A stretch of 64,000 nucleotides of DNA. It comes from Macrostomum lignano (lineage: Eukaryota). The stretch is taken from positions 248,001 through 312,000 of the forward strand of contig NIVC01000494.1 in the NCBI GenBank assembly GCA_002269645.1, given 5' to 3'. Below are positions 29,884 to 62,163 of this stretch, piece after piece. Positions within the stretch are counted from its first letter, which is position 1, and the number at the start of each line of letters is the position of its first letter. Both the position numbers and the translations under genes were made by a program. Below the pieces are notes generated by a model. The model worked only from the letters and a program-made list of their open reading frames with translations. It ran no database searches and was not told the origin of the DNA.

Positions 29884-42345
<12,462 letters not shown>

Positions 42346-43968
42346 AATTAAAAATCTGTAGACTATAGTTATAAGATAGAAATTTCCTTGTGATGAGTTA
42401 GTTATTCTAAGCCGAGTCAGTCAAGTTGTAACTGTTATTCTGTTAAGTGAGGCCTTCTCAACTGCGCTCTTCTGTTTCTTGTCTCTTTTGAAGCGCTTGC
42501 CTTTTGAAAAGAATGAGAGTGAAGGGTCAGTCAGTCACTCACTGTCCTTCACTCTGGCTAAAGCCCGTTCACTCGCAGAGTAAAGGAAGATAGGATGACG
42601 GTTTAATTATAATTGACGAGAGCTTGCGGAGTCGGGGTCAGTAAAGAGAGATACGAGACGCGGAGTAGGGAGGTTTGGAAGAGGGGTTGGGGTAGGTTGG
42701 ACTGCGGAGGGAGGGGGGGGGCTGATGGCCAACCAAGCTCACTGCTGCTCCAGTCCAGACTGTCAAAATTTGGCGTGGGCACGACGGGACGGGTCGTAAT
42801 AAAACGTCAAATAAATTTATACACAGTCACGGCAGACTTGGCAGAGCGGCAATTGCTATTGCTAAACGGAGCTTGAGCAGGGGGGGGGCTTGCCTTGCAA
42901 TGCAAAAGAGAATGAATGAATGAATGAAAGAGCGATCTTTCTTTTTAATAACTCGGTTCTGCTCTCTTTGTGAACAGAGCGGCAAGCGGGTGGAGAGGGT
43001 GGGTGCTGACTGCCGTTGCTGGTTGGCTAAATAACAAAAGTGGCAGCTCTCAAAGGAAAATTATACCTATGCAACAAACACCAAGGCAGCTAAGCGGATT
43101 CTTCTGACTTCTTGAAGTTGTGCCGCCGTCTTTTGTAGGTTTGGATTGGGTTGGATTGACTGCCAACGCCAAGCCTGTCTCTTTAGTCTTTACGGTTCTC
43201 AGACTGGCAGCTTAAAGCTGACTGCAGGTTTAGTTATGCCGGTGGCCCGTATATTATAATTGGTTTCCTCCTTGTGGGTGGCACAGTGGCAGGCACAAAA
43301 TCTCTCTTGTTTCGTCTGGACCCGGACCCCGGTTGGGGTTGGGAGAGTGCGCCAGCCGGGCATTGGAGGGTCCGGGGTCCCTTCTTTACCCCCACCTCAC
43401 TCCCCGGGGGTTGAGGCGGTTGAAAAAGTCACACAATCGCAAGTTAAACCTCAGCGGGGGGCATATTATCTCTACCTATAAAAATCAAAACTCTGTGTGT
43501 CTGTCTGTGTGTGGACAATTTTTAGGTTATATAGCATAGTATGAATAATAGTCCAAGTATACTTAATTGACGTTAGTACAAAACCACTACAACAAAGCTT
43601 ACAGGACACCGGTTACATTACATTTTTTACTTCAAACTCAAGACATTTAGAGAATTTAGAGAATAACAGAAATACGCTGACTAGACTAAATGTTAAATGC
43701 TTTCGAAGAATTTCTTTTCGAAGCGTTGGCTACCACTTTTATATTCTAAGCAAGCTACTAATAAAAAAACCATGCTGATACCCCCTTTGTATTTTAATAC
43801 AAAATATTCAAACGCATATTCCGAAATACAAACTACTATAAGTAGACCGTAAAGACCACAACTTTTATTAGGCATTTAATCCGCTGCTGCAGATCACTTT
43901 GTGTTTGTATTCATTAAGGGAATTAAGAAAGGATAATTAGAAACAAGAAGTCGACAATCTGAACGCGT

Positions 43969-44330
43969 AGTAGTAGGAAAGTGGTACCCTCTACCGCCAT
44001 CGCACCGGATTGGCCGGGGCACCCGGCCAATGAGGAGAGACGGCGCCCCCAAAAACGCCCACCCCGACGCCAAACCCACCCCGACCCCCAAACCCACCCC
44101 GACCCAAACCCACCACCGCCACGCACCCAATCCCGACCCCCAAACCCACCCCGACCCCGGCCAAACCCACCACCGCCACGCACCCACCCCGACCCCAAAC
44201 CGGGCCCCCAAAGACGCCCACCCGACCCCAAACCCACCACCGCCGCACCTACCTCCGACCCCAAACCGGGCCCCCTCCTGTCCTGCACCCCATCCCATAC
44301 CAAGGCCCCTTCCTGTCCAGCACACCATCC
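43969..44330 (+). repeat. Left terminal inverted repeat
   Basis: Reverse complement of ~55400-55865, with differences in internal repeat copy number. Confidence 0.9.
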
Positions 44331-44594
44331 CATACCGGAGGCCGGAGAAGGGGGTCGGGCAAGCCCAGGTTGGGGTCGGGCAAGCCGGTCGGGCAAGCCG
44401 GTCGAGCAGGCCAGATGAGGGGTTGGGCAGCTGAGTGTCTGGGTGAGTGTCCAAGGGTGAGTTAAGTGAGTGTTCAAGGGTGAGTTTTGAGATGTGAATG
44501 AGTGTCCATAGTTGAGTATCCTCTACCGCATGTGGTGATACGCAAGACAGAGTTTCAATGTGATCTTAACGGGTAGAGGGTCTGATTGCTTGGA

Positions 44595-44757
44595 ATTTCC
44601 GAGTAGAGAGGGGAAGGGATTCTATTGGTCGAGCAAGCATTTGAAGTGATTTCCGAGTAAAATGTGGAGAATGGATTCTATTGGTCGAGAGGTCCCTGAT
44701 GAACGATTTGGTTTGGACCCTGCGGGAGAAGGGCTCCAGTACCCTTTATAAATAAAG
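44595..44757 (+). promoter_or_regulatory. Putative pPolB promoter: duplicated module with inverted CCAAT boxes plus TATA
   Basis: atttccgagta at 44595 and 44649; ggattctattggtcgag at 44617 and 44673; tataaataaag at 44747, ~70 bp before the ATG at 44815. Confidence 0.45.
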
Positions 44758-44814
44758 CACCTCGGCCCCATATATTTTTTTTTTATTTTAGATTAAATTA
44801 AAAATACAACGAAA

Positions 44815-45590
44815 ATGCAAATAACTTGCGACTTTTGCGAGTCATCAGTAATCGGGGGCATTGAGGAGCACTATGCGGTATGGCCTGCGATACCAGCACT
44901 GTTTGAGTCAGATGACTCCCCAGCGATTCATTTTCAACTGATCAAGGAGGCGTTTAATGGCAGGTCCCAACTTTACCGGGCCAGTGCATGCGGCGACCCG
45001 ATGAATGTTTTGGAAAACACTCGTCAAGCTTTCATTGACTTGATCACCCAGCATCAACGTGAGCCAGGAACCGCCATCAAAGTTCAGCTGCGCCTCGGGG
45101 TCCTGATGCAGCGCATCATTAATGGTAGCTGCGCCGCCGAGAACACTGCCTGGTTTGCTGCCAAGGTCCACTCTCTTCTCCAGAGTGAGGAGGAGTACTA
45201 CTTCTCTGACGACATGCAGACTATCCTCAACCGGATAGAGAAGTAACTACGCAATGGCAGTGGCTGGGTAATCAGGACCACTCGGTGTGTTGACGTGTCA
45301 ACCGCAAGTTATTATCTACCGCATAGAGCGTCGTGCAAAAGGCCAAGAATGAGTTCAAGAAAGACTGCAACAAGCTGCTAAACAACTCCCTGTAGACCAT
45401 CGAGTATGTTCGCAAGCAAGTGGACTACGTGCTGGTTTATTCAGCAGGGAAGCCTGTGGCCCAGCCGACGTTCCGCGATCAGATGATTTTCAACGGGGAT
45501 TTAGCTCTAGTGCACATTCTCAAGACGAATGTTGTGCTCGACAGGCTAGTGTATATCGGCCAGTGCGATCTGTCTGGACACTAGCAAGCT
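44815..45590 (+). pseudogene. Collapsed protein-primed family B DNA polymerase (pPolB)
   Basis: N-terminal region ...KVQLRLGVLMQR...TAWF...ILNRIEK*LRNGSGWVI is typical of the Maverick pPolB N-terminus, with a TAA at 45244. It is joined directly to a motif-B segment AKNEFKKDCNKLLNNSL*TIEYVRKQVD...QPTF...VVLDRLVYIG. Exonuclease, motif A and motif C were not found. Confidence 0.8.
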
Positions 45591-46200
45591 CTTTTTCCCA
45601 CAAATTTTTTTTCTTTGTAAATATCTGATTTAAAACAACTATATGCATGTAAATTTAATACGAACATACTATATTTTGAATAATAATAAATACAAGCTTT
45701 ACTCTATGATATCTAATACGCAGAAATAGAGAAAAATGCTCTTTCACAAAAATATTTTTGCTATAATTAGTCATTTTTTGTGCACAGCTCTGGGGTAAAA
45801 TCCCCATTGAAATGTATGTATTTTATCCACAAGTATGCAAGTTTTCGTCCAGTGATTAAAAGTATGCAATACGGCGTGAATTTTTCGACAAAATGCGTCA
45901 ATTTTCATGCACAGGTTCGGGTACAAATCCCTATTGAAATACATGTATTTTGTGCACAAGTATGCAAGTTTTCGTGCACAGTGTTAAAAAGTATGCAAAG
46001 TGTTGAGGTTTTTTGTGCACACATTCGGGTAAAAATTCCCATTGAAATGTATGTATTTTGTGCAAACATGCATGCTTTTTCGCGCACAACAGAGGCTAGA
46101 AACGCTAAATCCGCAGAAACTGGTGGGGGTGGGCTGTTATTTTTTTTTTTCAAGCAGGTGTTTGGCATAAGAAAATGATAGGTACTAGAAATTTGGTAAA

Positions 46201-47419
46201 ATGAAAAAGAAAAAGGCAATTTCAAACCTTCTGCCAGGTATTTATTTTGACTGCAGTAGACCGGGCAGCTATGGCGGCTATCAGGCATTAAAACGAGAGT
46301 TGCACAAACAGCACGGACCCAAGTTTAGTGTAGGGCAGGTATGTATATACGATATACTTCTAAACCAATTATTTTTTAGAAAATTCCAGCTTAGGTTTTT
46401 AGTTTTATCCACTAGCTAGCAATTTCCAGTTTTTACAATTAAAGGTAAAAACGTGGCTCCAAGACCAAGATGTCTACACACTGCATAGAGATAAACGCAA
46501 AAACTTTCGTCGAGCACCGATTGTGGTGCGGGGCATGGATGACCAGTGGGAACTGGACCTGGTTGAAATGCTACCGTTTGCCAAGTACAATGGCGGCGTA
46601 CGATATATTTTATGCTGCATTGATGTGCTCAGCAAGTTTGCCTGGGCTCAGCCGGTGCGCCGCAAGACAGCCGAGGAGGTTGCAGCCGGATTCGAAGCGA
46701 TCCTAAATCGAGCTCACCCTCGATGCCCACGAGCAGTTCGGACCGACCGTGGAAAAGAGTTTTGTAACACCCAGTTCCGAGCCTTCTGCGTAAACCACAA
46801 AATTCATGCATTCACATCAAGTAGTGACCAGAAATGCGCAGTCATTGAGAGATGGAACCGCACACTGAAATCCCGAATGTGGCGGTACTTCCGTCACAAG
46901 TCAACATTAACCTGGACCGATGTGCTTCAACCCTTAGCAAAGGCATACAACCAGAGTATTCATCGGAGTATTCAAAGCCGACCAGTTGATGTCGACAAGT
47001 CAAACGAGATGGAAATTTGGCACCGGCTTTACGATGGGAAGCTTCCTGAGACTCGTGAAAAGGTCTCCAGACCAAAGTTCAAGGCAGGAATGATGGTGCG
47101 AATCTCTCTTCGCAATCTGGCCAACCCATTCACCAAGGGATACACAAGGGGATGGAGTGAGGAAGTATTTGAAGTCAAGTCCCTCCACCCCAAGCATTAT
47201 CCATACATGTACACTCTGATCGATGCCCGAGGTGAAGAGTTGGAAGGCAAGTTTTACGAGCCGGAAATGCAGCAAGTGACAGGAAACAAGAAGCTGTGGA
47301 TCATCGACAAGGTTCTCAACATTAAGAAGCTGAAGAGTGGAAAGATTCGGTATTTGGTTCAGTGGCGCGATTCAGAAAAACCCAGTTGGATTGACGAAAA
47401 AGACTTAAGAAAAATATGA
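46201..47419 (+). CDS. RVE-family (DDE) integrase with C-terminal chromodomain-like region; exons 46201-46338 and 46445-47419, ~370 aa
   Basis: IYFDCSRPGSYGG...|VKTWLQDQDVYTLH; WELDLVEM, TDRGKEF and VIERWNRTLK catalytic motifs; C-terminal IDKVL...RYLVQWRDSEKPSWI. Confidence 0.9.
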
Positions 47420-48198
47420 AAAGGCAAAGATTTCAGGTAATGTCCGGCCCCGATGATGACCCGGCCAACTTTACTGCTGAGCTGCTGCATCCTGTGCTGC
47501 TGGATTCTGCTTTGGACTATGAGTTGGGTCTGCTTGGAATCAGTTTTATCAACTGCATCTACACGATCCCTCATCCATTGTCGCTATATTATCAGCTTGA
47601 GGGTTCAATGCAATGTGCTGAAATTCCAGCTGGGCGCTACAATGACTTGAATGAGCTGATTGATGCAGTAAATGCTTTACTGATTGTAAAAGATTTTGAT
47701 GAGTCTGGAATTGGCGAAACACCTATAAATGTGCATCTAATTAAATTTACCCTTGATTCAGTTAGCCATTATGTATACTATCAAATGGCTGGGATCTGTG
47801 AGAGATTTATGTTTCCAGAAAACAGCCAGATGGGGAAAATCTTTGGTGCTGCGCAGACAACCTATAGCGAGCAGGCAGGATGCTTTGAACGACCTGGCAT
47901 GAACCCGGCCTGGAATACGGATTTGCTGCTTGTTGAGTGCGATCAGATTAGCCCGCGCTGTATTGGAAATCAGTTTACTCCAGCACTGCAGACTTTGAAT
48001 ATTGGTGGTCTTTTGCAGGATCACCGGTCGGAACTCATCTATAAGAATAAGCTGTTCTTCCCAATAGCAGCAAACCACCGCTTAACACACATGCAAATAC
48101 GGCTACGACCGATCAACTGTATCGAATCTATCCGATTACTCTTTGGACCCACAGTCTTGACTTTTGAGCTGCGTGAGTCATGGACATTCGACAAGTGA
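47416..48198 (+). CDS. Probable minor capsid (penton-like) protein, 260 aa
   Basis: ANFTAELLHPVLLDSALDYELGLLGI resembles the Polinton mCP N-terminus; position between integrase and MCP. Confidence 0.65.
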   Translation: MKRQRFQVMSGPDDDPANFTAELLHPVLLDSALDYELGLLGISFINCIYTIPHPLSLYYQLEGSMQCAEIPAGRYNDLNELIDAVNALLIVKDFDESGIGETPINVHLIKFTLDSVSHYVYYQMAGICERFMFPENSQMGKIFGAAQTTYSEQAGCFERPGMNPAWNTDLLLVECDQISPRCIGNQFTPALQTLNIGGLLQDHRSELIYKNKLFFPIAANHRLTHMQIRLRPINCIESIRLLFGPTVLTFELRESWTFDK

Positions 48199-48443
48199 CC
48201 GAGTTTTATCGAGGCAGTTGCTTCAAACTTCCTCATGGGCACGGATATCCCACATCGCTGCTATCTCGACTGCCCCCTGAGACTCATGAAAATGCAGTTC
48301 TCCTTTCCCGCATACCACCTCCATCGCAGAAAAAACATAAGAAAACGCCAAAAATCAAACCAAAGAAGAGCAAGCCAGTGCCCACAAAAAAGCGCAAGAT
48401 ACCGTTAAAAACAGTCAACCGAGTGCTCGATTCACTCTCATAA
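48180..48443 (+). CDS. Small basic protein (87 aa), candidate virion core/DNA-condensing protein
   Basis: Lys/Pro-rich C-half; fills the gap exactly and overlaps the MCP start (TAATG). Confidence 0.45.
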   Translation: MDIRQVTEFYRGSCFKLPHGHGYPTSLLSRLPPETHENAVLLSRIPPPSQKKHKKTPKIKPKKSKPVPTKKRKIPLKTVNRVLDSLS

Positions 48444-49713
48444 TGTATCGGACAAATCCACGGCTCAATCTGTTTGAGCCAATGACGCATGAAATTGGAG
48501 TGGATAGGTCTCACTTCACGGACTTTCATCCCATCGGCAGTCTCACGACTCCTGATGCACCGATTGAATTCGACTGCCACGCCTCCTCTGAGGACTACAC
48601 CGATCTGCACGCCACAGTGCTGCAAGTCACTTGCCGGATAACTCGTGTGATAAACAATGCAGAGCTGACTAATGAAGATGATGCCCATGTCGGACTATCG
48701 AATCTCCCGCTTGCCAGCCTGTTTCGTGATGTCACTGTAAAACTCAACCAGCGGGTTGTGAGTGGTGGGGACCAGCTCTACCCATATCGAGCAATGCTTC
48801 AAGTGCTGACCAGCAGCAATGCCAACCAGCTTCAAGAACTGGCGGCCGCAGGTTATTATCCAGACACCGCTGGAGAGAGTGACACCATTGGGGAGCAAAA
48901 TCATGGATTCACAAATCGTGCGAGATTGCATGAGGCTTCTGCTGTTGTGCAATATGCCGGCCCGTTGTTTTCAGACATTTTCTCAATCCGGCAGTATCTG
49001 CTAAACCAAATCAGCCTGCAGGTCAAATTGACCCGGCATTGCAGCGCTTTTTCGTTGATGGTACCCAATAATGGAGTTCAATATCGTATTGAAGTCGACA
49101 ATGCTATTCTGCTTTTGAGGCGTCTCCGAGTAAACCCAACAGTGGCTCTCGCACATGAACAGGGGCTCTCACAGCGTAATGCTCTCTACCACTTTGATAG
49201 AAGAGAGCTTCAGACATTCACATTTTCTGTTGGGACAAGAAACAAGAGTCTCGATTCAATCACGCATGGTCAGCTGCCAAAATTTGTGCTCCTTGGAATG
49301 GTCAGCCAGACTGCTTTCAATGGATCTCTGCACCACAACCCGTTTTGGTTCCAAGCATTTGGGTTGAATAGTTTAAGCCTGTTTGTCAATGGAGAGCCAA
49401 TTACTGGGCAGCCCATAGAACCACAGCAGCAGCACTCATCCGAATTTTTGCAGTTTGCCCGCAGTCTCGGTGGAAAATATTGCATAGCTTTGATGAATTT
49501 CGAAATAGTGCCTATCTGCTTGCGTTTGACCTTAGTCCAAGTGGCGATGAAGTAGGCAGCTGGTTTGGTCATAGGCAGGGTCAACTACGACTGGATATTC
49601 GCTTTTCCAACGCTCTCGCACAGCCAGTCACACTCATCTGCTTGTGCGTGTATGATTCATGCATGGAAATCACTAAAGAGAGGGATGTGCTGCTGGATTA
49701 TCGCAGAGCATGA
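48443..49713 (+). CDS. Major capsid protein (double jelly-roll), one frameshift near 49485
   Basis: FHPIGSL...PIEFDCHASSEDYTDL..TVLQVTCRI, SLFRDVTVKLN, YPYRA and LPKFVLLGMV. The C-terminus continues in another frame as SFDEFRNSAYLLAFDLSP...GQLRLDIRF...DSCMEITKERDVLLDY. Confidence 0.88.
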
Positions 49714-50183
49714 ATTCCGAAGAGTTGGAAGCGTTCATTTCTCGCTGCCCCACATCTGTGCGGGATGCCTATTGCGGAAATTTTACAGTTGGAACAGTGA
49801 CACCATTTTTCGATTCAACCTGCCGACCCTGCTGCTTCATTTTGTATGAGCCATGGAATGATGAGTGCGGTCACTGGATTGCTGGAGTAGTAACAAGTAA
49901 AGTGCATTGTGAAATTTTCAACTCTTTAGGAGGCTTGAGTAAAAATATGAAGAGCTGGTTAAAGAAAACTAAACCGACGCGGATGGTGCTGCAATGGAAT
50001 ACGGTCCCTGTTCAGCCCAGTTCGTCAACTCTATGCGGCTGGTATTGCATTTTTTACTTGATCCATCGACTACATAAGAGAATGTCATATAATGCCTTGT
50101 TCATCAAGGTTTTGCACCCGGCAGCTGTGGCTCAAAACGATGCAATCATACTCAGACTCAAAAATCAGTTGCAAGGTGTTTGA
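49710..50183 (+). CDS. Adenain-like cysteine protease, 157 aa
   Basis: GHWIAG (His), IFNSLG and VQPSSSTLCGWYCIFYL (Gln...Cys). Confidence 0.88.
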   Translation: MNSEELEAFISRCPTSVRDAYCGNFTVGTVTPFFDSTCRPCCFILYEPWNDECGHWIAGVVTSKVHCEIFNSLGGLSKNMKSWLKKTKPTRMVLQWNTVPVQPSSSTLCGWYCIFYLIHRLHKRMSYNALFIKVLHPAAVAQNDAIILRLKNQLQGV

Positions 50184-50798
50184 TTCCAGACTGCGGATGG
50201 GAGGCTGCATGATGGTTTCGGGCCCTTCTCGAGCGGGAAAATCAACATTCTGTTTGCGGTTGCTGTCCCAACGACTGCTTTGTTCGACCAACCTCCCAAG
50301 CGGATGATTTGGTATCACGGATGCCCGCAGCCGGAACTCCACGCGACTCTGCGGCGGCTAGGAGTGCAAGTATGTGAAGGATTATCGAATTTGGATCTGC
50401 AGCCCCATGACCTGATTGTGATTGACGATTTACTGGATGAAGCAGCTGCAAGTCGAGAGCTACGACATCTGTTCACCCGTGAGGCCCACCACAAGCCCTG
50501 CTTTGTCATTCTCATCACGCAAAATCTATTTTTCAAAGGCAGAGAGTGGCGCACAATTAGCATAAATTGCACCTACATTGTGTTGTTCAACAACCCCAGA
50601 GACGCCTCTGCGGTCCAAGCTTTAAGTCAGCAATGCTTTCCCAAACGGCGCACTCTGCTAGTAGAACTGATGGATCGATTGGTGCGAGATGGAGATCAGC
50701 GCTATCTGCTGCTTGATTTTCACCCCGCTTCGCCCCATGAACTGCGCCTGAGAGCCAATTTTCTCCCCGATGAGGCCCCGCAGCGAGTTTATCTATAA
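50140..50798 (+). CDS. A32/FtsK-like packaging ATPase, one frameshift near 50275
   Basis: Walker A GPSRAGKS (frame from ATG 50140); Walker B LIVIDD and FTREAHH...ITQNLF...RTISINCTYIVLFNNPRD (frame from 50280). Confidence 0.9.
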
Positions 50799-50828
50799 GA
50801 ATGGCTCAGTATCTGCACTGAGTTAAAC

Positions 50829-51161
50829 ATGGATAAACACATTGCACTAATAACTGTCTTTTGTGAGGGCACTATATCCTTGCGTCGCTGCATACTTACC
50901 TATGCAAATAAAAGCACCATTTGCTTTTTGGTTGAGTGTATTATAAATCTACTAGCAGGAAAAGTTTGTTGTGAAGATAGCTTGAAGCGGAGACTCAGGC
51001 GATATCGAAATACTCTCCGGCTTGTTGCACAAAGCAAAAGTGTGAAAGAGGCTCGGCGCAATCTCTCACACCCGCATATCCTTCGTTGTCTTCCTCTGAT
51101 TCTCACCTGTATAAAAAGACATGTACAAGGAAATGATACTGGTACCCCGGTTGCAGTATGA
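50829..51161 (+). CDS. Conserved small Polinton-type ORF (110 aa), function unknown
   Basis: ICFLVECIINLLAGKV...LKRRLRRYRNTLR resembles an ORF pattern I associate with Mavericks; located in the co-oriented block. Confidence 0.55.
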   Translation: MDKHIALITVFCEGTISLRRCILTYANKSTICFLVECIINLLAGKVCCEDSLKRRLRRYRNTLRLVAQSKSVKEARRNLSHPHILRCLPLILTCIKRHVQGNDTGTPVAV

Positions 51162-51717
51162 GGCACTTGTGAATCAGAGGGGCATGGAGACAGTCTGTGA
51201 ACCCGAGCTAGAGGCGGAAAAACAGTTGCGCAAGATTAGGGACGAGCGTTGCGTGCAGCAGCTGCAGGCAAGTGCGACCCAAGAACAGCCTCCAGTAATT
51301 CACAAAGAACCGCAGTGGAAGGAGGTTTTATATCTGACGGTGAATCAGAAATGGCATCATCGTCTGCAGGCATTGATTAGCTTCATAACCGTAAAGTGCA
51401 AGTCGATTAGCATAGATGATACGTATGAAGTTTCTGTCAATGGTAAACCGTTGTACAACTCAAATATCGTGGACCTGCTGTATTTCATAGTTAAAGATAC
51501 GTACTCTAAGTATCTTCAGCCACCGAATGGGATTAATGAGTTTGTTACGTGTCTTCAAGAAAACCACGTGCCTCTGTCTGCAGTTGGTCTGAACACTACA
51601 AAATTGCTGGAAAAGCCTCGGGAAGAAAAGTCCAGTCCTAAAAAACCTCGACTGCAAGGCTATAAGAAGACTCAGTCTCAGAAAGGATACGGCAAGTGGA
51701 TCAAGTGGCCAAGATGA
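51121..51717 (+). CDS. Conserved Polinton-type ORF (198 aa), function unknown
   Basis: VNGKPLYNSNIVDLL...PPNGINEFVTCLQENHVP pattern; the stop overlaps the next ATG. Confidence 0.55.
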   Translation: MYKEMILVPRLQYEALVNQRGMETVCEPELEAEKQLRKIRDERCVQQLQASATQEQPPVIHKEPQWKEVLYLTVNQKWHHRLQALISFITVKCKSISIDDTYEVSVNGKPLYNSNIVDLLYFIVKDTYSKYLQPPNGINEFVTCLQENHVPLSAVGLNTTKLLEKPREEKSSPKKPRLQGYKKTQSQKGYGKWIKWPR

Positions 51718-52229
51718 TTGTCATTGATTTTGAAGGATTTCCGCACCTCTACAAAACAGAGGACTTTGTGATTAAGGAAATTGCATGGGTTGAGTTTGCA
51801 TGCGGTCAAACGACGGCTCATTACTATTGCTACCAGCCGCCGCACAGCTTTGAGCTCTTTGATCGAGGACAGCGACGAACCTGCTACTGGCTCACCAATA
51901 AGCGGCACGGTCTAGACTGGGACAGGAGTGGGTTCCGACCCTACTCTTGTCTCTGGAGCGATATCTCCCACTTGCAAGGCCCGATATTCAGCAAGGGGGA
52001 TGTCAAGTGCCAGTTCCTGTCGCGTCTGCTGCTACAGCCTGTCTACGACCTCGCACACCTGGCCTTTCCGAGTGCCTCGAAGTACGTGCTACCCTGCGCC
52101 CTGGCCAAGGTGGCGCTGTACGCTGATTGGCTGCGGCCTCGCGGCTACGGGTCTATAAAAGTAGCGATCTGCAGCAGGCACTGGCATTTCTCTCGATTGT
52201 CTGGTTTTGTCTCGCATAGAGACGCCTAA
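51714..52229 (+). CDS. DEDD/DnaQ-like 3'-5' exonuclease
   Basis: MIVIDFEGF (ExoI DxE), FVIKEIA, HGLDW, IFSKG and CALAKV. Confidence 0.65.
   Translation: MIVIDFEGFPHLYKTEDFVIKEIAWVEFACGQTTAHYYCYQPPHSFELFDRGQRRTCYWLTNKRHGLDWDRSGFRPYSCLWSDISHLQGPIFSKGDVKCQFLSRLLLQPVYDLAHLAFPSASKYVLPCALAKVALYADWLRPRGYGSIKVAICSRHWHFSRLSGFVSHRDA
52154..52202 (+). promoter_or_regulatory. TATA box plus initiator-like leader
   Basis: TATAAAAG at 52154-52161; CATT with A at 52186 (32 nt downstream). The leader aggcactggcatttctctcgattgtct is repeated exactly at 53063-53089. Confidence 0.5.
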
Positions 52230-53093
52230 CCGCAGTCACTTCTGTGAAACTTGTCTCTGCCTGGCTGAAAGCTTGTAATGAGTGAGTAGGCTGGGTTGGA
52301 GGGTAATAGTGGATCGGGAGGGGCTGTGGGTAGCTGTATAGGAAGGCAGGCCTATACCTGTACCAAGGTGCTCTGACGGTATCCCTCAGGCGCCCTCTGA
52401 GCGTACAGCCAGCGACCCTATTAAAGCTGGAGTGTGCCAGAACCAGGACTGAGTCTGAGCAGGACGGGACCGTTGGCACGGTCACAATAGAAATGGCGGG
52501 TTGGCGAAGCAAAGGGTGAAACAGTCCCGGCGATTAGCCCTCCTGCCGCTTCAAAGATAAGAGACTGTCTGTTGGCAAGAGTACCCGGGGTCTAGTTGGG
52601 GGGGGAGGCTCCTTCGGGTTGCCACGGCCGTGGGGGGCGGTCAAATGACCGGCATTGGCTTAACTAACCCAGGAGTAGGCACGGGCTTCCCTGAATGGTT
52701 CACTCAACCCCCTCTGGCCCCGGGGAGGTTTTTGATTTGTACCCGGGGTGGTGGGCGGTCGGCCCCAGCATGGTTGCCACGGCTCTAGGCCTTCGGGCCA
52801 TCTCTAATAGGCTTTGGGGGCCTTCTAACCTGGTTTTTTGGGCACGGGCTTCCTGACTGGTTCGTCGAACCGCTGTCACTGTCCCCCGGGGAGGTTTGGT
52901 TTTTCTGATACTGCCCTGTACAGTCCTCTATAGTCTAATTTGGCTTTTAGTGTACATGAGTACACTCCCAATCTGGAATCTAAATTATCTCTAGTGGCGT
53001 AAGAGCCTTTTTACTTAGGCTGAGGCGCCGGAAGTACTTATCATAGTCATAGTCATAGTCATAGGCACTGGCATTTCTCTCGATTGTCTAAAG

Positions 53094-53744
53094 ATGGCCG
53101 CAACAATTCGCGTAACAAACATCGTGACAGGAGCCGACCTGGCGACCCGGGTGGGTCTGCCACAACTAGCGAATTTCCTGACTCTTCATCTGCCTCAGTA
53201 TCACACAATCCGCCATCGCCTGGTTCATCCTCGAACACTGGCTGTGGTGATGAAGAGCGGGCAGCATCGAGTAACCGCGCTGGTGTATCCGACCGGACAA
53301 GTGTCTGTCTGTGGAGCCAAAAGCATGGAGGAAGCTCTCGTAGAGACAGAGAAGATTGTGAAGCTGTGTGCAGACTTCTTGCGATTGACCAGTCTGCCCC
53401 AGATTCGCATCAAGACTATTACCTCTGTGACGACCTTTCCCGCGGGTCGGCATCCACTCCGGTTGGGGGAAGTCAAGTCTAAATGGCCGCATCGGGCCAC
53501 CTACGAGCCGGAAATGTTTAACGGACTTGTGCTCGAGTTTACTGCTTCTGTAAAGTTGATTTTGTTTCATTCATATCGCTGTATAATAGCTGGTGCTCGC
53601 AGCGTGGTTGAGGCTCAGACTGCAGCTGATGCCCTCTCCCGCATTTTGCATGCAGACCAAGCATCCGAACCTACTTTGCTGGACTCTGACTCAGCTCCTC
53701 TACGGCATAACAGTAGTAGTGAGATCTGCCTATGCACCGAGTAA
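53094..53744 (+). CDS. Divergent TATA-binding protein (TBP)-like protein, 216 aa
   Basis: Two TBP-like repeats: VTNIVTGADL...AVVMK...TALVYPTGQVSVCGAKS and ...TYEPEMFNGLVL...KLILFHSYRCIIAGARS. Compare TBP QNIVAT, TALIFASGKMVVTGAKS and SYEPELFPGLIY...LLIFVSGKIVLTGAK. Confidence 0.82.
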   Translation: MAATIRVTNIVTGADLATRVGLPQLANFLTLHLPQYHTIRHRLVHPRTLAVVMKSGQHRVTALVYPTGQVSVCGAKSMEEALVETEKIVKLCADFLRLTSLPQIRIKTITSVTTFPAGRHPLRLGEVKSKWPHRATYEPEMFNGLVLEFTASVKLILFHSYRCIIAGARSVVEAQTAADALSRILHADQASEPTLLDSDSAPLRHNSSSEICLCTE

Positions 53745-54130
53745 TAATAATAATAATAATAATAATATTTTTGCTGTAACTTTACTTCTGTATTTCTTTT
53801 GTGTACAAAAGATAAGAAAAAATAAACGCGAATGCAACTATGTTTGTGCAACAATGCTTACAAAAATGAAACGTTTTTTTTTTGTTTATTTTATTGGCAG
53901 GTCCATGGATTGCTAAGCATAAAATTACATGTTAAAAGCTCCTATTAGCACAAAAAAAGTTTATGAAGAATGGAAGGGCAGTATTAAGGCCTGTCACGTG
54001 TATTTACAAAACAGGTATTATCGCAAGAAATTAAAGCATCATGGGGCAATATTATAGCCAGTATTGACAAAGCAGTATATACAACAGTGCATGATCAGTA
54101 CTATGGTTCAAAACTATATTAAAAAAAAAG

Positions 54131-54826
54131 TTACTTGACGAAATGACCAGTTGTCGCTTCATGCATTGCGCGTCGCTTCATTGGTGGCTGGTGGCATGAA
54201 GGCTGTTGGTTCTTCTCAGCTGTTGATGGCTCTTCCAGAGTTTCGGATGCAAATCTCTTTCTAAATTCAGCCTGAACTGCCTGGAAAGCCTCCCAGTGGT
54301 CGTCCCACTCTGCCGGCTGCCTGTCAGGTACTTGTATAAGTTGGTCGAGTGTAAGCCTTGCTGCCCATGCTGCACACTCTTCAGGCTCCGTAGGGTGGTA
54401 TCCCATCCACCATGGATCGCCGATCGGTGGCTTGACCGGAGGTTCTCGCTTGTCAATTTTGTCTAGGACCCAATGCTTTTGAGCCCAGACTTCGCGCCAA
54501 AGTTTTGTAGGAAGCGGTAAGGCGTGCCTTAGGTGCACCGGCGGTCCGAGTACAGTTGGAAGGCGCCAGAGTGTGATTACGCCATTTTGCACAACCACTT
54601 GCCTGTTGCCACCCAGAAGGCATTGCGCATCGATACACTTTCTTGCAAACTCTTCCAGTCGTTCCTTCAGGCTGCCCAAGTGGCAAAACTGGTGGACGGT
54701 GAGCTCCATGCCAGGCAGACCTGGTCGATACTCTTCATCAAATTTGTACCACTTTCTGATGCTGATGCACTTCGAGTGCGACCTGACGCCGATTCGAAAT
54801 CTGTTCGATAATGTCTTGAAGTTCAT
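54131..54826 (-). CDS. PC4 (Sub1/p15)-like ssDNA-binding/coactivator domain protein, ~231 aa
   Basis: N-terminus FKTLSNRFRIGV...ISIRKWYKFDEEYRPGLPGMELTVHQFCHL fits the PC4 pattern (vdIRe.Y....kPgkKGIsLt.eQw..L). TATATAA ~45 nt upstream of the ATG on the minus strand. Confidence 0.65.
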   Translation of the reverse strand: MNFKTLSNRFRIGVRSHSKCISIRKWYKFDEEYRPGLPGMELTVHQFCHLGSLKERLEEFARKCIDAQCLLGGNRQVVVQNGVITLWRLPTVLGPPVHLRHALPLPTKLWREVWAQKHWVLDKIDKREPPVKPPIGDPWWMGYHPTEPEECAAWAARLTLDQLIQVPDRQPAEWDDHWEAFQAVQAEFRKRFASETLEEPSTAEKNQQPSCHQPPMKRRAMHEATTGHFVK

Positions 54827-55399
54827 TTTGTTCACTGTGAGCTTTCCTTCCGGCTGTGTGCGAGATTATATACGACGAGAGTTGGTAAGTAACACCAGCT
54901 CCCGCTCCATCGCAATAACCAATCCGAACCCCGAATCCAACCCCACACAACAGCCCTCTCGCAGGAACTCTCGGCAAATCAGGAGCCCTTCCGGGGACCA
55001 CTCAGCCATTTAGAAACCAGCTCCTGTTCCATAGCAATAACTAATCCGAACCCCAAATCCAACCCCCACACAGCAGCCCTTTCGCAGGAACTCGGGCCTC
55101 AACAAAGTCTCAGCCATCAACGTAACAGGAGGTGGCGGGACCTTCTTGCGGCCCTCTGGCCGCCAAGAAGTAGCGTTCTAGGTCTAACGACCTCACGCTG
55201 TACCCGCCACAGCAAGATACAGTACAACCAAAGCATGGAATGAGGGTTTTGCCTTGGCTAGCTTTAAAGGCGGTAAGTGAGACAGGTAATAAGACTTGGG
55301 TTTAGGAATTAGGAGGGGGGAATTGGTTTTGGTTAGGGTACAGGATAGAAGGACCTTGCTACATGGGATGGGGCAAGGCGTAGGATAGGAGGGGGCCTT

Positions 55400-55865
55400 G
55401 GTATGGGATGCATGGGGTGCAGGACAGGAGGGGGTCTTGGTATGGGATGCACGGGGTGCAGGACAGGAGGGGTGTAGGACAGGAGGGGGTCTTGGTATGG
55501 GATGCATGGGGTGCAGGACAGGAGGGGGTCTTGGTATGGGATGCACGGGGTGCAGGACAGGAGGGGGTCTTGGTATGAGATGCACGGGGTGCAGGACAGG
55601 AGGGGTCTTGGTATGGGATGCACGGGGTGCAGGACAGGAGGGGTGTAGGACAGGAGGGGGCCTGGTTTGGGGTCGGGGTGGGTGCGTGGGTTTGGGGTCG
55701 GGATTGGGTGCGTGGCGGTGGTGGGTTTGGGGTCGGGGTGGGTTTGGGGGTCGGGGTGGGTTTGGCGTCGTGGTGGGCGTCTTCGGGGCGCCCTCTCCCC
55801 TCATTGGCCGGGTGCCCCGGCCAATCCCGTGCGATGGCGGTAGAGGGTACCACTTTCCTACTACT
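55400..55865 (-). repeat. Right terminal inverted repeat with expanded internal tandem units
   Basis: Multiple cttggtatgggatgcacggggtgcaggacaggagggggt units, versus about 1-2 in the left TIR. Confidence 0.88.
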
Positions 55866-57114
55866 ACGCGTATTAACCACCTGCGTGAGTTTAAGCACAC
55901 AACAGAATTTTATGCAACGGCTGCTCTTGATGCAAGCAAATGTTTAGTTTTCAATGGACATTTATTTATCAAAGGTAACATAAAAGTGAAACAAATTAAA
56001 CAAACAGTCAATTTTTTTCTAATTTTATTTTCGACACAAAAATACATTTAGATCAAATGGTTTTTATTGTATATGCATAAGAATAATTAACACATACCTG
56101 CTCTATGTATTACCTTCTTAGCTAATCGGCAGACATTGAAAGGTGAACACACCAAGGCGGCAACAAACTTCAAACTAAATTAGCCGGGAAAAGCAAAGTA
56201 AGACTTGTAAGACAAAGCAATTGCTCAGCTAGTGCAGCCAGTAGAAAAAGCGCATATAGCACGTAACTAAGCGCATGAAAGCTAGAGAGAGAGATGAGAC
56301 CGCGCCTCACGGGTCAGCAGATTAAGGAATGAGCTAAATCTATAATTAGCCAATGAATCAACAACTAAAATTTTGATTTCTCACTATATTATTAATAAAG
56401 CAAAATGGTAGAAACACTCAAAGCTTAGTAATGATTACATCCGATTGGAATGGCCAAAATGCCTTGAATAAATTTTTACATATTATAAGAATAATTAAAG
56501 GAACAAAACTGTGTATTTAAATAAATAAAATAGAATAAAACAAACTAATTACAGGTGCAAAGCAAGCAAAAATGTCAGACAACAACACAATTCCCAAAGA
56601 AGAGTCAAAATCAACACAGCGATAATTTTTCTCCACAGAATCAAACACAGACAGTTGATTGGTTGCCTCAGATTCGGACACGCGGCACAAGTTGAGAGGC
56701 AACAAGTCGTACAGCAAAGAAAAAAAACAGAAACTGCAACAACAGTTCCACTAATCAAGGTAATTATTAGTAAGTTTTTTTTATAAGTCCGATTCTGCAA
56801 ACAAGGAAAGAAAAGACACACGTTACGTAACTTTCATTATATTGAAGTTGTACCTTCTTGTATATACTACTTACTTGCTTAGTAGATCGAATTTCTTTGG
56901 CTTTAACCGTCTATTTATACTACTTAGTTCAACGAGTAATAAGTAGGGTGAACGATTACAATTCTTGAAACAGTTGACGCTGTTAAGCAGGCATGAACTG
57001 GATGTAAATATTAAATAACTAATTATTGTGGCCATATATTAATTAGTAGAAAAAAAATTACACACTGAGCTGCTATTACAATCAATATAGTCATAATTAT
57101 GAATAGTTATTAAA

Positions 57115-60100
57115 TCACTGATTGTGATGATTGTGTCGATGACTTCGGCTGGAGCTTCTTCGCCTAGATTTGTGATGCGAGGATTTCCGTTTGTGCCGCT
57201 TGTGATGGTTTTGGCGGCGACTGTGGTGGCGATCGTGCTGCTGGTGATGGTGACGCTTGCTGCGTTTCTGTGGGAAAAATTTAATGGAAAAATATCACAA
57301 CGGTAAAGCAGCTCAGCGCTTAACGCGTCTGACTGTTGCGCGTCAAGTCAGTGGGGCCACATTCAAGAAATTCGTGCACGGCATTTAGCGGATGCGCTGC
57401 ATAAGCGCGCAGTTGCATAAGCGCAGCAGTTGCATAAGCGCGCAGTTGCATTAGAGCACATTTGCATAAGCGCCAGTTGCATAAGCGCCAGTTGCATAAG
57501 CGCCAGTTGCATAAGCGCAGCAGTTGCATAAGCGCGCAGAGTAATAAGCCCGCAGTTGCATAAGCGCGCAGTGTGATAAGTGCACAGCTGCATAAGCGCA
57601 GCAGTTGCATAAGCGCGCAGTTGAATTAGAGCACATTTGCATAAGCGCAAATTTGCAAAAGCGCGCAGTGTAATAAGCACGCATTTGCATAAGCGCTAGT
57701 TGCATAAGCGCTAGTTGCATAAGCGCAAAATTGCAATAAACAATATAAACAATGTAGCAAATTTCAAGTTACCTTAGCGGTTTCCCGGTCGCTGCTACTA
57801 CTGATTTCGTCACTGTCGCTGTTGCAGTCTTCTTTGGCGCTATTGTGAGCACTGTGCGCTGCTGCGGCGGAAGCGGCGGCGGCGGTGGCCGCGGCTGCGG
57901 CGGGCCCGGAGCAGCATTCCACCCAGTCGTATTCAGACGAGGAAGGCGACGAAGAGGACTGGTCTTGGCTTGCTTTCCGCTTCAAGCTGGACGATTGTTG
58001 ATGCCGCTGCTGCTGCTGAGGCTCGGAGTTCGAAGCGGCTGGCAGCTGATACGACGGCGGCGGAGTCCGTGCCGACGCTCTAGCATCAACTGGCGCAGAT
58101 GCCGACGCCACGACTGACTTAGTAGGCTGCGGAGGCGTCAACTGCATCACGAGTTGTTGCTTTTGCTGTTGCTGCTGCTGCTGCAGAGGAACCGGGACAC
58201 AGCTGAACTTGTTGCCCTCAACCTTGTGTATTTTCAATCGAATACAAGTGGACGACGGCGACGCGGCGGCAGAGGCGGACGAATGAGACGGCGACTGGGA
58301 AGGACTGCCGTAGCTAACTAATAACTCACTGTTGCCAGACTGAGCTGCTGCAGCCTGAGCTGTCGAATCGCTTGTAGAACCGTTGTTGCTCTTTGAAGAA
58401 TAGCAACTAGAGTTGACATTGCGAGCGGACATGAACTGTAACAGGTCGGTTTTGCTGCCACTACTGGTGCTGCTACCGCTGCTAACTGATCCGTTGCCAT
58501 TGCAATTGCCATTGCTGGAGTTATTGCGCAGGACAAACACTGGACGCGGTGTAAACATCGGTCCAGACGATGTTGTCGACGTTATAGTGGACTGAATCGG
58601 ACTAGCGGCCGATGACACCAGCACGCGAATAGTGGAAGTGGACGGAATCGATCGAACGGCAGCCGTCTGGCTAGTCGGTATCGATGACACCGGTATCGGC
58701 GGAGCAGCAGCAATAGGCGGCGTCGGATGAGGCGCATCCACAGTGGACACGGGCCTGGCGCCGTTGCTACTATTGCTGTTATTGTTGACAAGAGCTGACA
58801 GGTCAGTCCGCCTGTAGAACAGAATATACGGGCAAGAGTTCAGCACCCGAGTCTCGCTGATTCGTTCAACCGAGGCATCGTTCAAGCACCACCAGGCTTC
58901 GTTGCGTTTAGCGTAGCAATAATAGTGCCCAAACTTGGTGCTGGCGCCGTGGTGTATGACCACGGAGTACAGGTCGTATTGCACTGGCCGGCCTCGCTTA
59001 GACATGAACGGACGCAGGTCCAGACTAAGCGGAAACTCAACAAACCGGCTAATCTTGCTGTTGTGACCCCATTGGAATCGGTTCAACTGGATAGTTAAGA
59101 TTGGCGGGCCAACAGCGATGCTGAAACTCTTCATAGCAGTCACTTTTGTGCGACATTTCTCGCATTTGTAAGCGTTGGAGTCTTTCAACAGATCGGCGGA
59201 TACAAACCGCTGCAGACAGTCGATCAAGTTGTTGCTGCTCTGGATGCACAGGCTTAGATCCATGAAATCGTCGAATGTCTGCGACTGGGCGCCGCATTTT
59301 GAGCAGAGTACGGACGATTTGAGCTTGCCACAGAATAGCACTCGGATTGGATTGGATGCGCGCCTGTTGGTTGCAAAAAAGCAGTAAATTTTATAAATTG
59401 CTCAGGTACCTAACGGTATTACTGCTCCCGCAACTTATCAGCAGGTATAGCTCGTATTATCGGGACACTGCTACTCATCACACAGGTACTTTTGACGGCC
59501 ACAACTCGGGTACTTTTGACAGGACACAGCTACTCATCAACCGGTATGTTTGACTGGACACACAGCTACTCATCAACCGGTATGTTTGGCAGGACACACA
59601 GCAACTCATCAACCGGTATGTTTGGTAGAACACACAGCTACTCATCAACCGGTATGTTTGACTGGACACACAGCTACTCATCAACCGGTATGTTTGACTG
59701 GACACACAGCTACTCATCAACCGGTATGTTTGACTGGACACACAGCTACTCATCAACCGGCATGTTTGGCAGGACACACAGCAACTCATCAACCGGTATG
59801 TTTGGTAGAACACACAGCTACTCATCAACCGGTATGTTTGGTAGAACACACAGCTACTCATCAACCGGTATGTTTGGCAGGACACACAGCTACTCATCAA
59901 CCGGTATGTTTGACAGGACACAGCTACTCATCAACCGGTATGTTTGGTAGAACACACAGCTACTGATCAACCGGAATGTTTGACTGGACACACAGCTACT
60001 CATCAACCGGTATGTTTGACAGGACACAGCTACTCATCAACCGGTATGTTTGGTAGAACACACAGGTACTCATCAACCGGTATGTTTGGTAGAACACACA

Positions 60101-60860
60101 GCTACTCATCAACCGGTACGTTTGACAGGACACAGCTACTCATCAACCGGTCCTTTGGTGGTTAATAGTTGAAAAAAACGGGACGAGACAATGATCAATT
60201 TAGTAGAGATTTTAAATGAAATGAAACAAAATTAGACACAAAAGAACCTACTTCAAGTAATATAAATGTCACAAAATGTCTAAAAAAGGACACAGCGGAC
60301 TCTTACTTAGACTCGGCGCCCGTATAACCGTGCAAACAATTGCTCTCCATATAGTCCAATAGGCCGCGCAAAAACTCGTGCGCATCCTCTTGCCGATTAA
60401 GGCGCATTGTAGGCGATATAGCGCTCAATCTGTTCATGAAAGCGCGCGGATAACAGGCCGACCCGGGGCCGCAGCTGTAGCGCTTATAATAGCGCACAAA
60501 TTCGCAAACTGCGCACCATTTGTCAACGCTAGGCACAATTCTACAAGTTGACACGTGACTGCTCAATACGAAATTGATAAAAGCCGGCGTGTGCAGCAGA
60601 GACTGGAGCACAGAGATCATATAGCAGTAGTTGCCTTCGTTAGTGAAGCCAAACGGTAGACCAGTGTAGCTGTGCTGCAGCTGTACCAGCTTGTAGGAGA
60701 ACAGCTTTGGTTGCTGCTGCTGCTGCTGCTGCAGATGCTGCTGCCTGTCTCCATTCAATAATCTGTGATGCCCGTAGCCGTTCGAAGTTGAAGCGATCGA
60801 TCCGTTGCTATTAGAGCCATTCTGCTGCTGCTGCTGCTGCTGCAGGATGGGTGCCAGCAT
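57115..60860 (-). CDS. USP36/USP42-like ubiquitin-specific protease; exons 60860-60307, 59363-57773, 57267-57115
   Basis: Cys box GFTNEGNYCYMISVLQSL; QEDAHEFLRGLLD; Zn-finger C..C; His box YSVVIHHGASTKFGHYYCY...WWCLNDASV. Phase-consistent GT-AG introns; Ser-rich tail and His/Arg/Lys-rich last exon. The start codon is uncertain. Confidence 0.88.
57400..57730. repeat. Intronic repeat on gcataagcgc core
   Basis: Tandem variants. Confidence 0.85.
59500..60150. repeat. 36-bp intronic minisatellite (cacagctactcatcaaccggtatgtttgactggaca)
   Basis: Tandem array. Confidence 0.93.
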
Positions 60861-61065
60861 CCCGGGACGCTGGGCGGCGATTGATGAAGCCAGAATTGTC
60901 AAATTAGTATCACTTGTAACCAGATAAATTTATATTAATTATTATTTAATCCAGATTCCAAAACTGCGGCGACTCAATTCGGCATGCGATCAGATCAGGA
61001 ATGTTTGGCAACCTTTCTGATTAAGCTACTAAAAGTAGTATTATGATTCAATTTTAGGTCTACAT

Positions 61066-61344: not shown

Positions 61345-62163
61345 TAGTTCTACAAAGATCGACAAAAACTTAAAATAAATCAGGTAAATAAATGAAGAGC
61401 AAAAATGCACTTAATCAGCAATAAAATCCCAAAAACCATAAATTAACCTTGTATTTTTATTTAATAAATTCTCAGTAACATTGACAGAAGAAAAAACACG
61501 ATTGGAAACACACTGGACAAGATAGTTATGTATATAGTTTTTTTAATTCTGACCACAGATACTATAATAACTAGATGGGCCTCTCAGCACATTTGCGTGT
61601 AAGCTACTGTCAGTTCAGTAGTAAGTTGTTAAACAGAAGCATCTTAATGTATTTTTTAAGCCAAGGTTCATTTATTAGCTCTTACCCTCCACTAAATCCT
61701 GTAATTGCGCCTTATCAAGACTACCCCTTGCCCCACCCCAATTTTTATTGCCTTTCTCGGAATTCCAGTCTAAAGTAGCCATGTACATTTCAGTGGACTG
61801 GCTAATGAACATTATTGCTGAACCAATTAGCAAGTTGTTCTTCCAAACTTATCAACGTCATTCCAGCTGCCTTTATTTTTATAAAATAGCTTATGTTTTC
61901 TTCTTTGCTACTGAACTGAAAGTAGAAAGCTGATTTGCTAAGTATATGTGCCTGAGTGGCCTATCTAGACATTTTATTATCTGCGACTCTGACTAACATT
62001 TCGAAAACCAATTTTTGCTAGACTACTAACTCAAGAGTAGTTTAAGCGATTATTAATACCATAATTTATGATAGAACATCTAGAGATATATATCTAGGGA
62101 TACTATAGTCATTAACAATGCCCTACACCATCAGTTATTGGAGCTAAGACAAAAAAATCTAAT

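Follow-up and report, generated by a model that had tools for sequence, protein, structure and literature searches.

The window element and its genes

The window analysed here is a stretch of 64,000 nucleotides of Macrostomum lignano DNA (assembly GCA_002269645.1, contig NIVC01000494.1, positions 248,001 to 312,000). It contains a Polinton that spans 43969-55865 (11,897 bp), with AGTAGTAGG ends and a 6-bp target-site duplication (TSD) that is perfect, as a preliminary description of this DNA had stated. Terminal inverted repeats (TIRs) that start with AG, the 6-bp TSD, an RVE integrase and a double-jelly-roll (DJR) major capsid protein (MCP) mark the element as a Polinton. Autonomy calls for an intact protein-primed polymerase B (pPolB, encoded by polB) in cis, and of this enzyme only residues 4-166 and 950-1030 are left. 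The features are collected in Table 1. Host exons lie around the element at 32700-39450, 57760-60930 and 62080-62610; from the motifs in their open reading frames (ORFs) we take them to resemble a TALE homeobox gene, a ubiquitin-specific protease and SRP72. Minisatellite makes up a large part of the window.

Table 1. Features of the polB-deleted Polinton in the window, with the positions of three related copies elsewhere in the genome. TP, terminal protein; vOTU, viral OTU protease.
Feature	Position	Strand	Basis or remark
Left TSD, 6 bp	43963-43968	.	same letters as 55866-55871
Whole polB-deleted Polinton copy	43969-55865	+	termini, TSD, colinear copies
Outer left TIR, helper-type family	43969-44336	+	first 37 nt equal the right end; ~77% over 370 nt
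Inner left arm from older sister family, where it belongs to the long TIR	44387-44814	+	74-79% to C3293, C13, C1228
polB remnant 1, TP domain	44815-45325	+	tblastn, residues 4-166
Premature TAA ending the polB ORF	45244-45246	+	in 6 of 16 sites that hold this codon
Internal deletion junction in TP-vOTU linker, 4-bp microhomology	45326-45329	+	removes vOTU, exonuclease, motif A
polB remnant 2, motif-B region, 6-bp loss creating a stop	45330-45590	+	tblastn, residues 950-1030
Second deletion junction at ~45590 (motif C and C-terminus lost), then native AT-rich polB-integrase spacer	45591-46200	+	
Spacer repeat units, three	45770-45869, 45897-46008, 46010-46088	+	
RVE integrase, chromodomain-like C-terminus	46201-47419	+	Pfam PF00665, E 7.5e-14
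Predicted phase-0 GT-AG integrase intron	46339-46444	+	read from sequence
Probable minor capsid (penton) protein, open	47416-48198	+	Atlas lead only: feature match of 0.97 with a cluster in which 26% of members have PF21507; position of the gene
MCP, double jelly roll, one 1-bp gap	48443-49713	+	modelled from open copy C4138
Ulp1/adenain-like cysteine protease, open	49710-50183	+	Pfam PF02902, E 0.0097, below cut-off
Probable A32-like packaging ATPase, 1-bp gap near 50280	50140-50798	+	Atlas: 25 of 30 named matches fall in a set in which 13% of members have PF04665
Two conserved Polinton ORFs, both open	50829-51161 and 51121-51717	+	
Exonuclease-like ORF	51714-52229	+	strong synonymous excess
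860-bp insertion of abundant unrelated repeat, with 27-bp duplication	52203-53062	.	between exonuclease and TBP ORFs
TBP-like ORF	53094-53744	+	Pfam PF00352, E 9e-19
PC4-like (single-stranded DNA-binding) ORF	54131-54826	-	Pfam PF02229, E 6e-5, below cut-off
Right end, 1.03 kb; its inverted copy is the left TIR of helper-type copies, directly 5' of polB there	54834-55865	-	
Right TSD	55866-55871	.	matches left TSD
Inverted-arm copies	C592:149057-159651; C862:327172-340125; C1016:331990-336311		perfect TSD

To model the MCP we used an open copy of the gene (C4138) that is 99.6% identical to the window gene. The model (pLDDT 83) matched the Sputnik MCP with a Foldseek E-value of 8.6e-16, and the Sputnik, mavirus and iridovirus MCPs at E 1e-15; no match to the MCP was found in the phage collection. 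The probable packaging ATPase had no sequence match in the PDB. We take the first of the two conserved Polinton ORFs to be PW-like and the second to be PZ-like, homologs of the latter being present in one of three sister-family copies, and the exonuclease-like ORF is, from its motif, presumably of the DEDD type. Four runs yielded no contig with a spliced integrase, a result that says nothing on expression.

A 363-aa frame that fuses exonuclease and TBP occurs in few copies and hinges on a 1-bp difference; since nearly all copies have two ORFs, a fusion was rejected. The 860-bp repeat that lies between the two ORFs is found there in the window copy alone among element copies. It contains an internal duplicated GC-rich unit and is also present in the left arm of C1277 and next to C255; with 40 of 311 candidates scored, it is matched over nearly its full length, at 93-100%, in at least 40 places of the genome. 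Rfam searches gave no match, either for this repeat or across the whole Polinton.

The preliminary description allowed the ORFs other than polB at most one indel each. Consistent with this, eight of the ten reference frames compared (exonuclease and TBP counted as one reference) have no frame-breaking lesion in the window copy, and the MCP and ATPase genes have one 1-bp gap apiece. Short-read contigs, which collapse copies, carry one extra base at both of these gaps. Among 66 1-bp gaps in the copies, 24 lie in runs of at least three, against a background of 17%, and 29 lie in no run, so a homopolymer origin explains them only in part. Some of the gaps recur at two or three sites, including that in the window ATPase gene.

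Loss of polB and its recurrence at independent sites

Measured by tblastn against the full-length polB of a copy with the same TIRs, ~780 codons are gone from the window gene, and with them the vOTU protease, the exonuclease and motif A; the two remnants sit in different reading frames. Much of this had been recognized beforehand: the in-frame TAA is where it was reported, and the N-terminal domain is indeed joined straight to motif B. The junction, placed earlier at ~45315, lies at 45326-45329. Motif B is 6 bp shorter than in copies C746 and C16, as had been proposed, although the original motif guessed at, NNSLYGKTIE, differs from that of relatives by some letters. The C-terminus, in turn, was thought to be replaced by AT-rich DNA and ~120-bp repeats; it is in fact deleted, and this DNA and its repeats are the ordinary spacer between polB and integrase. 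One unit of these repeats (~112-127 bp) was searched in nine other copies and found as two or three units each in seven of them, both polB-bearing and deleted; it is also present in the decayed sister copy C13 and missing only from C2038. One contig of an independent run (X3) crosses both polB junctions, which are therefore no assembly artefacts, and the TAA allele was found in two independent runs.

The first 350 residues of a polB from a copy with the same TIRs were modelled with a 66-row alignment (pLDDT 88.6). In the model, residues 36-162 form one domain, which a linker of low confidence (166-171) separates from a second. Structural comparison pairs residues 43-164 with the little-finger/PAD domain of Y-family polymerases (best Z 8.3, rmsd 2.9, 109 aligned), and residues 175-305 with viral OTU proteases (Z 7.6, rmsd 4.1, 106 aligned). 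Both Z values are middling, yet the predicted folds agree with the TP-vOTU layout reported in the available text of 10.1101/2024.03.18.585575, where pPolB likewise has a TP with a PAD-like fold followed by vOTU. Ser144 is invariant in the alignment, and Cys196 and His296 are nearly so; the conserved Ser is the predicted linking residue of the TP. On this model the deletion begins in the TP-vOTU linker, and the TAA falls a few codons 5' of the predicted linking Ser.

We refer to copies that have the window's termini and the deleted polB as type B, and to copies with the same termini and a different polB as type A. A genome search with 44600-46500 gave at least 48 matches (40 of 66 candidates scored), and the terminal 33-mer has 55 exact matches; the copy and site counts given here are lower bounds. 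The same internal junction is present in 26 of the 28 copy arms that match the polB remnant, and the two arms without it (C13 and C2657) are one decayed sister insertion that retains the polB middle. The 22 type-B arms lie on 20 contigs and represent 17 independent sites, with flanks that are unrelated save for allelic pairs. At 15 of these sites the TSD is perfect, at one it has a one-base mismatch, and one site is present as two halves with the same TSD. Given these flanks and the junctions in the contig of the independent run, we rejected the view that the copies stem from assembly artefact or haplotype duplication. C753/C570, a fragment of the cassette with no polB arm within 20 kb, was left unclassified; C3/C236/C2213 and C84 are isolated termini. 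Each of the 55 terminal matches belongs to the present family or is an isolated terminus.

The lesions are nested. All type-B arms have the internal deletion, all but C16/C317 have the C-terminal loss, 21 of 22 have the 6-bp loss in motif B, and 7 of 21, from six sites, have the TAA. The arms with the TAA form a clade (SH-aLRT 96) with a mean divergence of 0.41%, versus 3.87% for all type B. One ancestral deletion thus took vOTU, exonuclease and motif A, and the later deletions, the 6-bp loss and the stop accrued within its descendants. Because one junction is shared by 17 independent sites and later lesions are nested within it, type B spread after the polymerase was lost, and the lineage went on inserting through repeated rounds of spread. 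This bears out the proposal from which we started, that the lineage kept propagating without its replicase, and the check suggested for it, since the junction is not unique to the window copy and does recur at independent insertion sites.

Frame breaks recur across type-B sites in the MCP, ATPase and PC4 genes, with the MCP gene break-free at only 3 of 13 sites; in this assembly error and inheritance are not separable as their source. Of the 17 type-B sites, 14 have integrase exon 2, which is break-free at 8. Within the element, a 44-47-bp piece of the ATPase gene has been expanded to a tandem array in two copies (C460:449038-449696 and C1769:126770-126941).

Copies with the same termini and a different polB

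Type A was found at eight sites, which have the window's termini and, from 45797 onward, its cassette (95-99% identity, the integrase up to 99.8%). Their left arm repeats the right 1 kb in inverted orientation and continues with a polB that matches PF03175 at E 5.6e-12 and is 65-70% identical in nucleotides to that of the older family (47-48% in amino acids over the TP domain). A UniRef protein from the genus Macrostomum matches the polB of this family. The polB frame is uninterrupted (1236 aa) at one of the eight sites (C254:490287-506966 / C1157, one haplotype having a 5-kb insertion), where the allelic copy has a stop; two sites have one or two frame breaks and in the rest the gene is deleted or decayed. 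C254/C1157 is itself without the equivalent of window positions 47193-49935, which hold the end of the integrase, both capsid genes and the start of the protease. Two further, independent polB deletions were found in type-A copies at one site each. The first (C110:295700-308567) removes residues 153-692 in frame, with its junction also present in run X7, and the second (C291:245674-258535 / C2385) is a loss after residue 825. DNA of type-A polB was present in three of four independent runs; run X19 gave no match to this polB, a result that has no bearing on expression.

The suggested check for an autonomous copy with the same TIRs has a positive outcome in so far as same-TIR copies encode a full-length polB, but this polB is a different one and no undamaged version of the deleted gene. 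Two features of helper dependence are found in the genome, namely an identical inactivating lesion at 17 sites and a partner with the same termini at eight, one of which encodes the missing function in an uninterrupted frame.

All 73 candidates for an open full-length polB of the deleted gene's own lineage were scored and none qualified. That lineage persists as one decayed insertion with other termini (C13/C382/C1228/C2657), in which the TP is 9% diverged, the cassette mostly 83-94% identical and PC4 67-70%. One site with the older termini (C1489/C3293/C2017/C1794) already has both polB deletions, and 44501-44762 of the window's inner left arm also matches the right ends of C13, C1228 and C382. 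Judged by these sequence comparisons, type B is a chimera of an A-type outer TIR, an inner arm with the deleted polB from the older family, and a shared cassette. The deleted arm would have come from the older sister family, with the A-type termini gained by B later.

Exchange between the two types is seen throughout the cassette. Using quick trees with one copy per site and allelic duplicates dropped, AU tests rejected type-B monophyly in four of four segments, with p-AU values of 1e-59 for the integrase (14 B versus 6 A rows), 0.026 for the capsids (12 versus 6), 4e-44 for protease to exonuclease (14 versus 7) and 7e-9 for TBP-PC4 (14 versus 6); the AU test assumes one tree per segment, and recombination breaks this assumption. 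As B copies form no clade in any cassette tree, types A and B recombine, and they do so at 97-100% identity. The nearest non-allelic copy of a type-B copy is type A in 16 of 86 cassette bins. The allelic pairs C2126/C5126, C254/C1157 and C291/C2385 differ by no more than ~0.2% except in one bin, and the mosaics are thus reproducible; the two copies of the pair C1131/C1769 conflict over their right half, and 1.5% separates C1330 from C414. Such mosaics could also come from misassembly or from gene conversion among chromosomal copies.

Gene conversion might even account for type B as a whole, if the sites were first A-type and the deleted arm was copied in later, in which case no polymerase-less genome transposed. 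Mosaicism is pervasive, and the outer TIR and spacer repeats would provide homology flanking the arm. This history nevertheless requires 17 replacements of ~4.8 kb by 1.4 kb, and the site with older termini already has both deletions. In addition, the integrase alleles of the six-site TAA clade are near-identical (0-0.31% to the window) and divergence grows away from the deleted arm, which fits recent co-amplification. We regard conversion in place as highly improbable.

Selection was assessed from variants in 18 B arms and 8 A copies, codons near gaps being left out. Shared variants are neutral in the TP remnant (15 of 43 synonymous versus 11.5 expected, p=0.15) and in the motif-B remnant (5 of 13 versus 3.5 expected). 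Cassette variants common to A and B are strongly biased (105 of 178 synonymous versus 51.7 expected, p=1e-16). Shared cassette variants found in B only give 19 of 46 versus 13.6 expected (p=0.059; Fisher p=0.68 against the remnant), and private B variants are neutral (64 of 220 versus 60.8). The contrast between polB and the other genes noted in the preliminary description is real (Fisher p=0.003), but it may reflect import from A copies and not selection within B. The purifying signal of the cassette resides in variants shared with helper-type copies. The virion genes look near-intact in the window, as had been noted, and owe this largely to a young cassette exchanged with helper-type copies.

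The same counts bear on the idea that selection favoured the deletion for leaving a stand-alone TP gene, which B would express to prime its own genome. The left breakpoint does lie in the TP-vOTU linker (model residues 166-171), 8 of 16 sites have one or more assembled copies with a break-free TP frame, and stand-alone TPs are known in adenovirids and one coral polinton (10.1101/2024.03.18.585575). Against this, the neutral variants of the TP remnant and the stop 5' of the predicted linking Ser in the youngest clade (six sites) give no support to purifying selection on such a TP, and the idea itself is scarcely credible.

Spread of the polymerase-less form

It is assumed that Polintons are copied by the polymerase that they encode, and to our knowledge their multiplication has never been observed. 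Dependence on a helper is familiar from adenoviruses, and non-autonomous Polintons were reportedly described by Kapitonov and Jurka in 2006. For type B, the TP-pPolB of type A probably replicates excised B genomes from a shared terminal origin, with recombination between co-replicating genomes and reinsertion by an integrase. When a type-A copy is expressed, its TP-pPolB would start at the terminal origin that excised B genomes share with it, and the shorter B genomes would be copied alongside A genomes and recombine with them. B would then re-enter the chromosome through an RVE integrase, its own or a neighbour's, leaving 6-bp TSDs, and would act like a defective-interfering genome that still bears integrase and virion genes. 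The termini are needed equally by the integrase, so that sharing them is no proof that the A polymerase is used.

Three type-B sites have giant inverted arms inside one TSD (C592, 4.8-kb arms, 98.9%; C862, 2.7 kb, 99.6%; C1016, two left arms, 83%), and these copies resemble products of snap-back replication. C1016 has a perfect TSD and no integrase, from which it follows that complementation in trans occurs in this Polinton family. They also weigh on whether B needs a pPolB at all, as its own integrase might cut and paste it while copies are gained by host replication and gap repair. The retention of integrase exon 2 and the perfect 6-bp TSDs would be expected if so, and gap repair from other copies would likewise yield mosaics. 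However, C1016 integrated without an integrase of its own, inverted arms within one TSD (C592, C862) would better fit strand-displacement or hairpin replication, and Maverick end repeats are expected to serve protein-primed replication (PMC8097293). We therefore consider movement by integrase without pPolB unlikely.

A polymerase could instead be supplied by another Polinton family. With 91 of 974 candidates scored, the genome holds at least 119 further matches to pPolB, many with long open frames. Few A copies are uninterrupted, and three sister-family copies (C114:462-477 kb, C393 and C754) agree with the window in gene order and in the first 9-10 terminal bases and have a polB 42-47% identical, their termini being otherwise different. 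Yet of 40 positions at the window terminus those families share only 11-23, and it is with A that B recombines at 97-100% identity and from A that it took its termini. Ten other polB loci that were sampled have only 7-10 terminal bases in common with the window and no extended nucleotide match. Replication by a family other than type A is accordingly quite improbable.

Replication in trans by type A, our preferred reading, leaves room for a more speculative one, which we put forward tentatively and think rather doubtful, namely that these are cooperating partial genomes. The polymerase-less majority would give integrase and virion proteins and a minority the polymerase; the one site with an uninterrupted polB frame is indeed without the capsid genes and the end of the integrase. 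The polymerase-less lineage would have persisted beyond the polymerase family it began with by adopting the termini of a new helper. If true, this would be a natural, recombining, multipartite-like Polinton with a helper switch recorded in the genome.

Helper dependence of non-autonomous elements is a general concept (PMC6431247). As in non-autonomous transposons and defective-interfering genomes, type B has kept its cis ends and lost an enzyme, would need autonomous relatives, and is commoner than the form that encodes the enzyme. Non-autonomous derivatives typically arise by loss of the integrase or of every gene, whereas B keeps integrase and virion genes and is without its replicase only. 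Polintons with a TP-vOTU-EXO-PALM pPolB, as described in the available text of 10.1101/2024.03.18.585575, resemble the present element in AG termini, 6-bp TSD, RVE integrase, DJR capsid, and probable protease, ATPase and penton; unlike those, the majority form here is without any polymerase, and none has been put in its place, nor a helicase. Displacement of pPolB has been reported in nematode Polintons (10.1101/2023.08.22.554363), mosaicism of replication modules in 10.64898/2026.10.13.758929 and recombination between elements in 10.1101/2022.07.12.499685, and here too one cassette is combined with two polB lineages and elements recombine. The difference from the first two, as far as their available text goes, is that one polB lineage survives here only as a deleted remnant and decayed copies, with the remnant form at 17 sites versus 8.

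Mavericks of axolotl, tuatara and pike have many copies with a broken pPolB, and the amplification of hundreds of defective copies was called "perplexing" (PMC8097293). In its available text that study invokes complementation in trans for retroviral env only and does not trace lesions across sites, whereas in M. lignano one junction can be followed to 17 sites and has a candidate helper beside it. The present case offers a testable account of those amplified copies in other animals. The same study takes purifying selection on virion genes as a sign of spread that is mainly by reinfection; our data suggest that intact-looking capsid genes can be kept by recombination with helpers, which complicates arguments from dN/dS. 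A literature search, with supplements, Repbase reports and most subscription papers outside its scope, returned no polymerase-less Polinton lineage that keeps capsid and integrase at many sites, and the available text of 10.1101/2024.01.15.575659 has nothing on replicase-less Polinton lineages. Helper dependence, polB replacement and mosaicism are already known, and what appears to be new here is a replicase-less lineage that keeps its integrase and virion genes. Such a genome can go on colonising sites and outnumber the polymerase-bearing copies (17 versus 8 sites).

The TIRs were also compared for signs of copying between the two ends. The two ends agree at terminal position 24 in 24 of 26 copies, but only 8 of the 26 have a left 160 nt that is matched best by the right end of the same copy; with so mixed an outcome we rejected TIR copy-back as a demonstration of panhandle replication. 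The long TIR of both families appears to place the same sequence 5' of polB on the left and of PC4 on the right (43969-44800 and 54834-55865 in the window). This arrangement suggests a promoter shared by the two genes within the long TIR of both Polinton families, and the inner left arm (44387-44814) may have such a promoter role.
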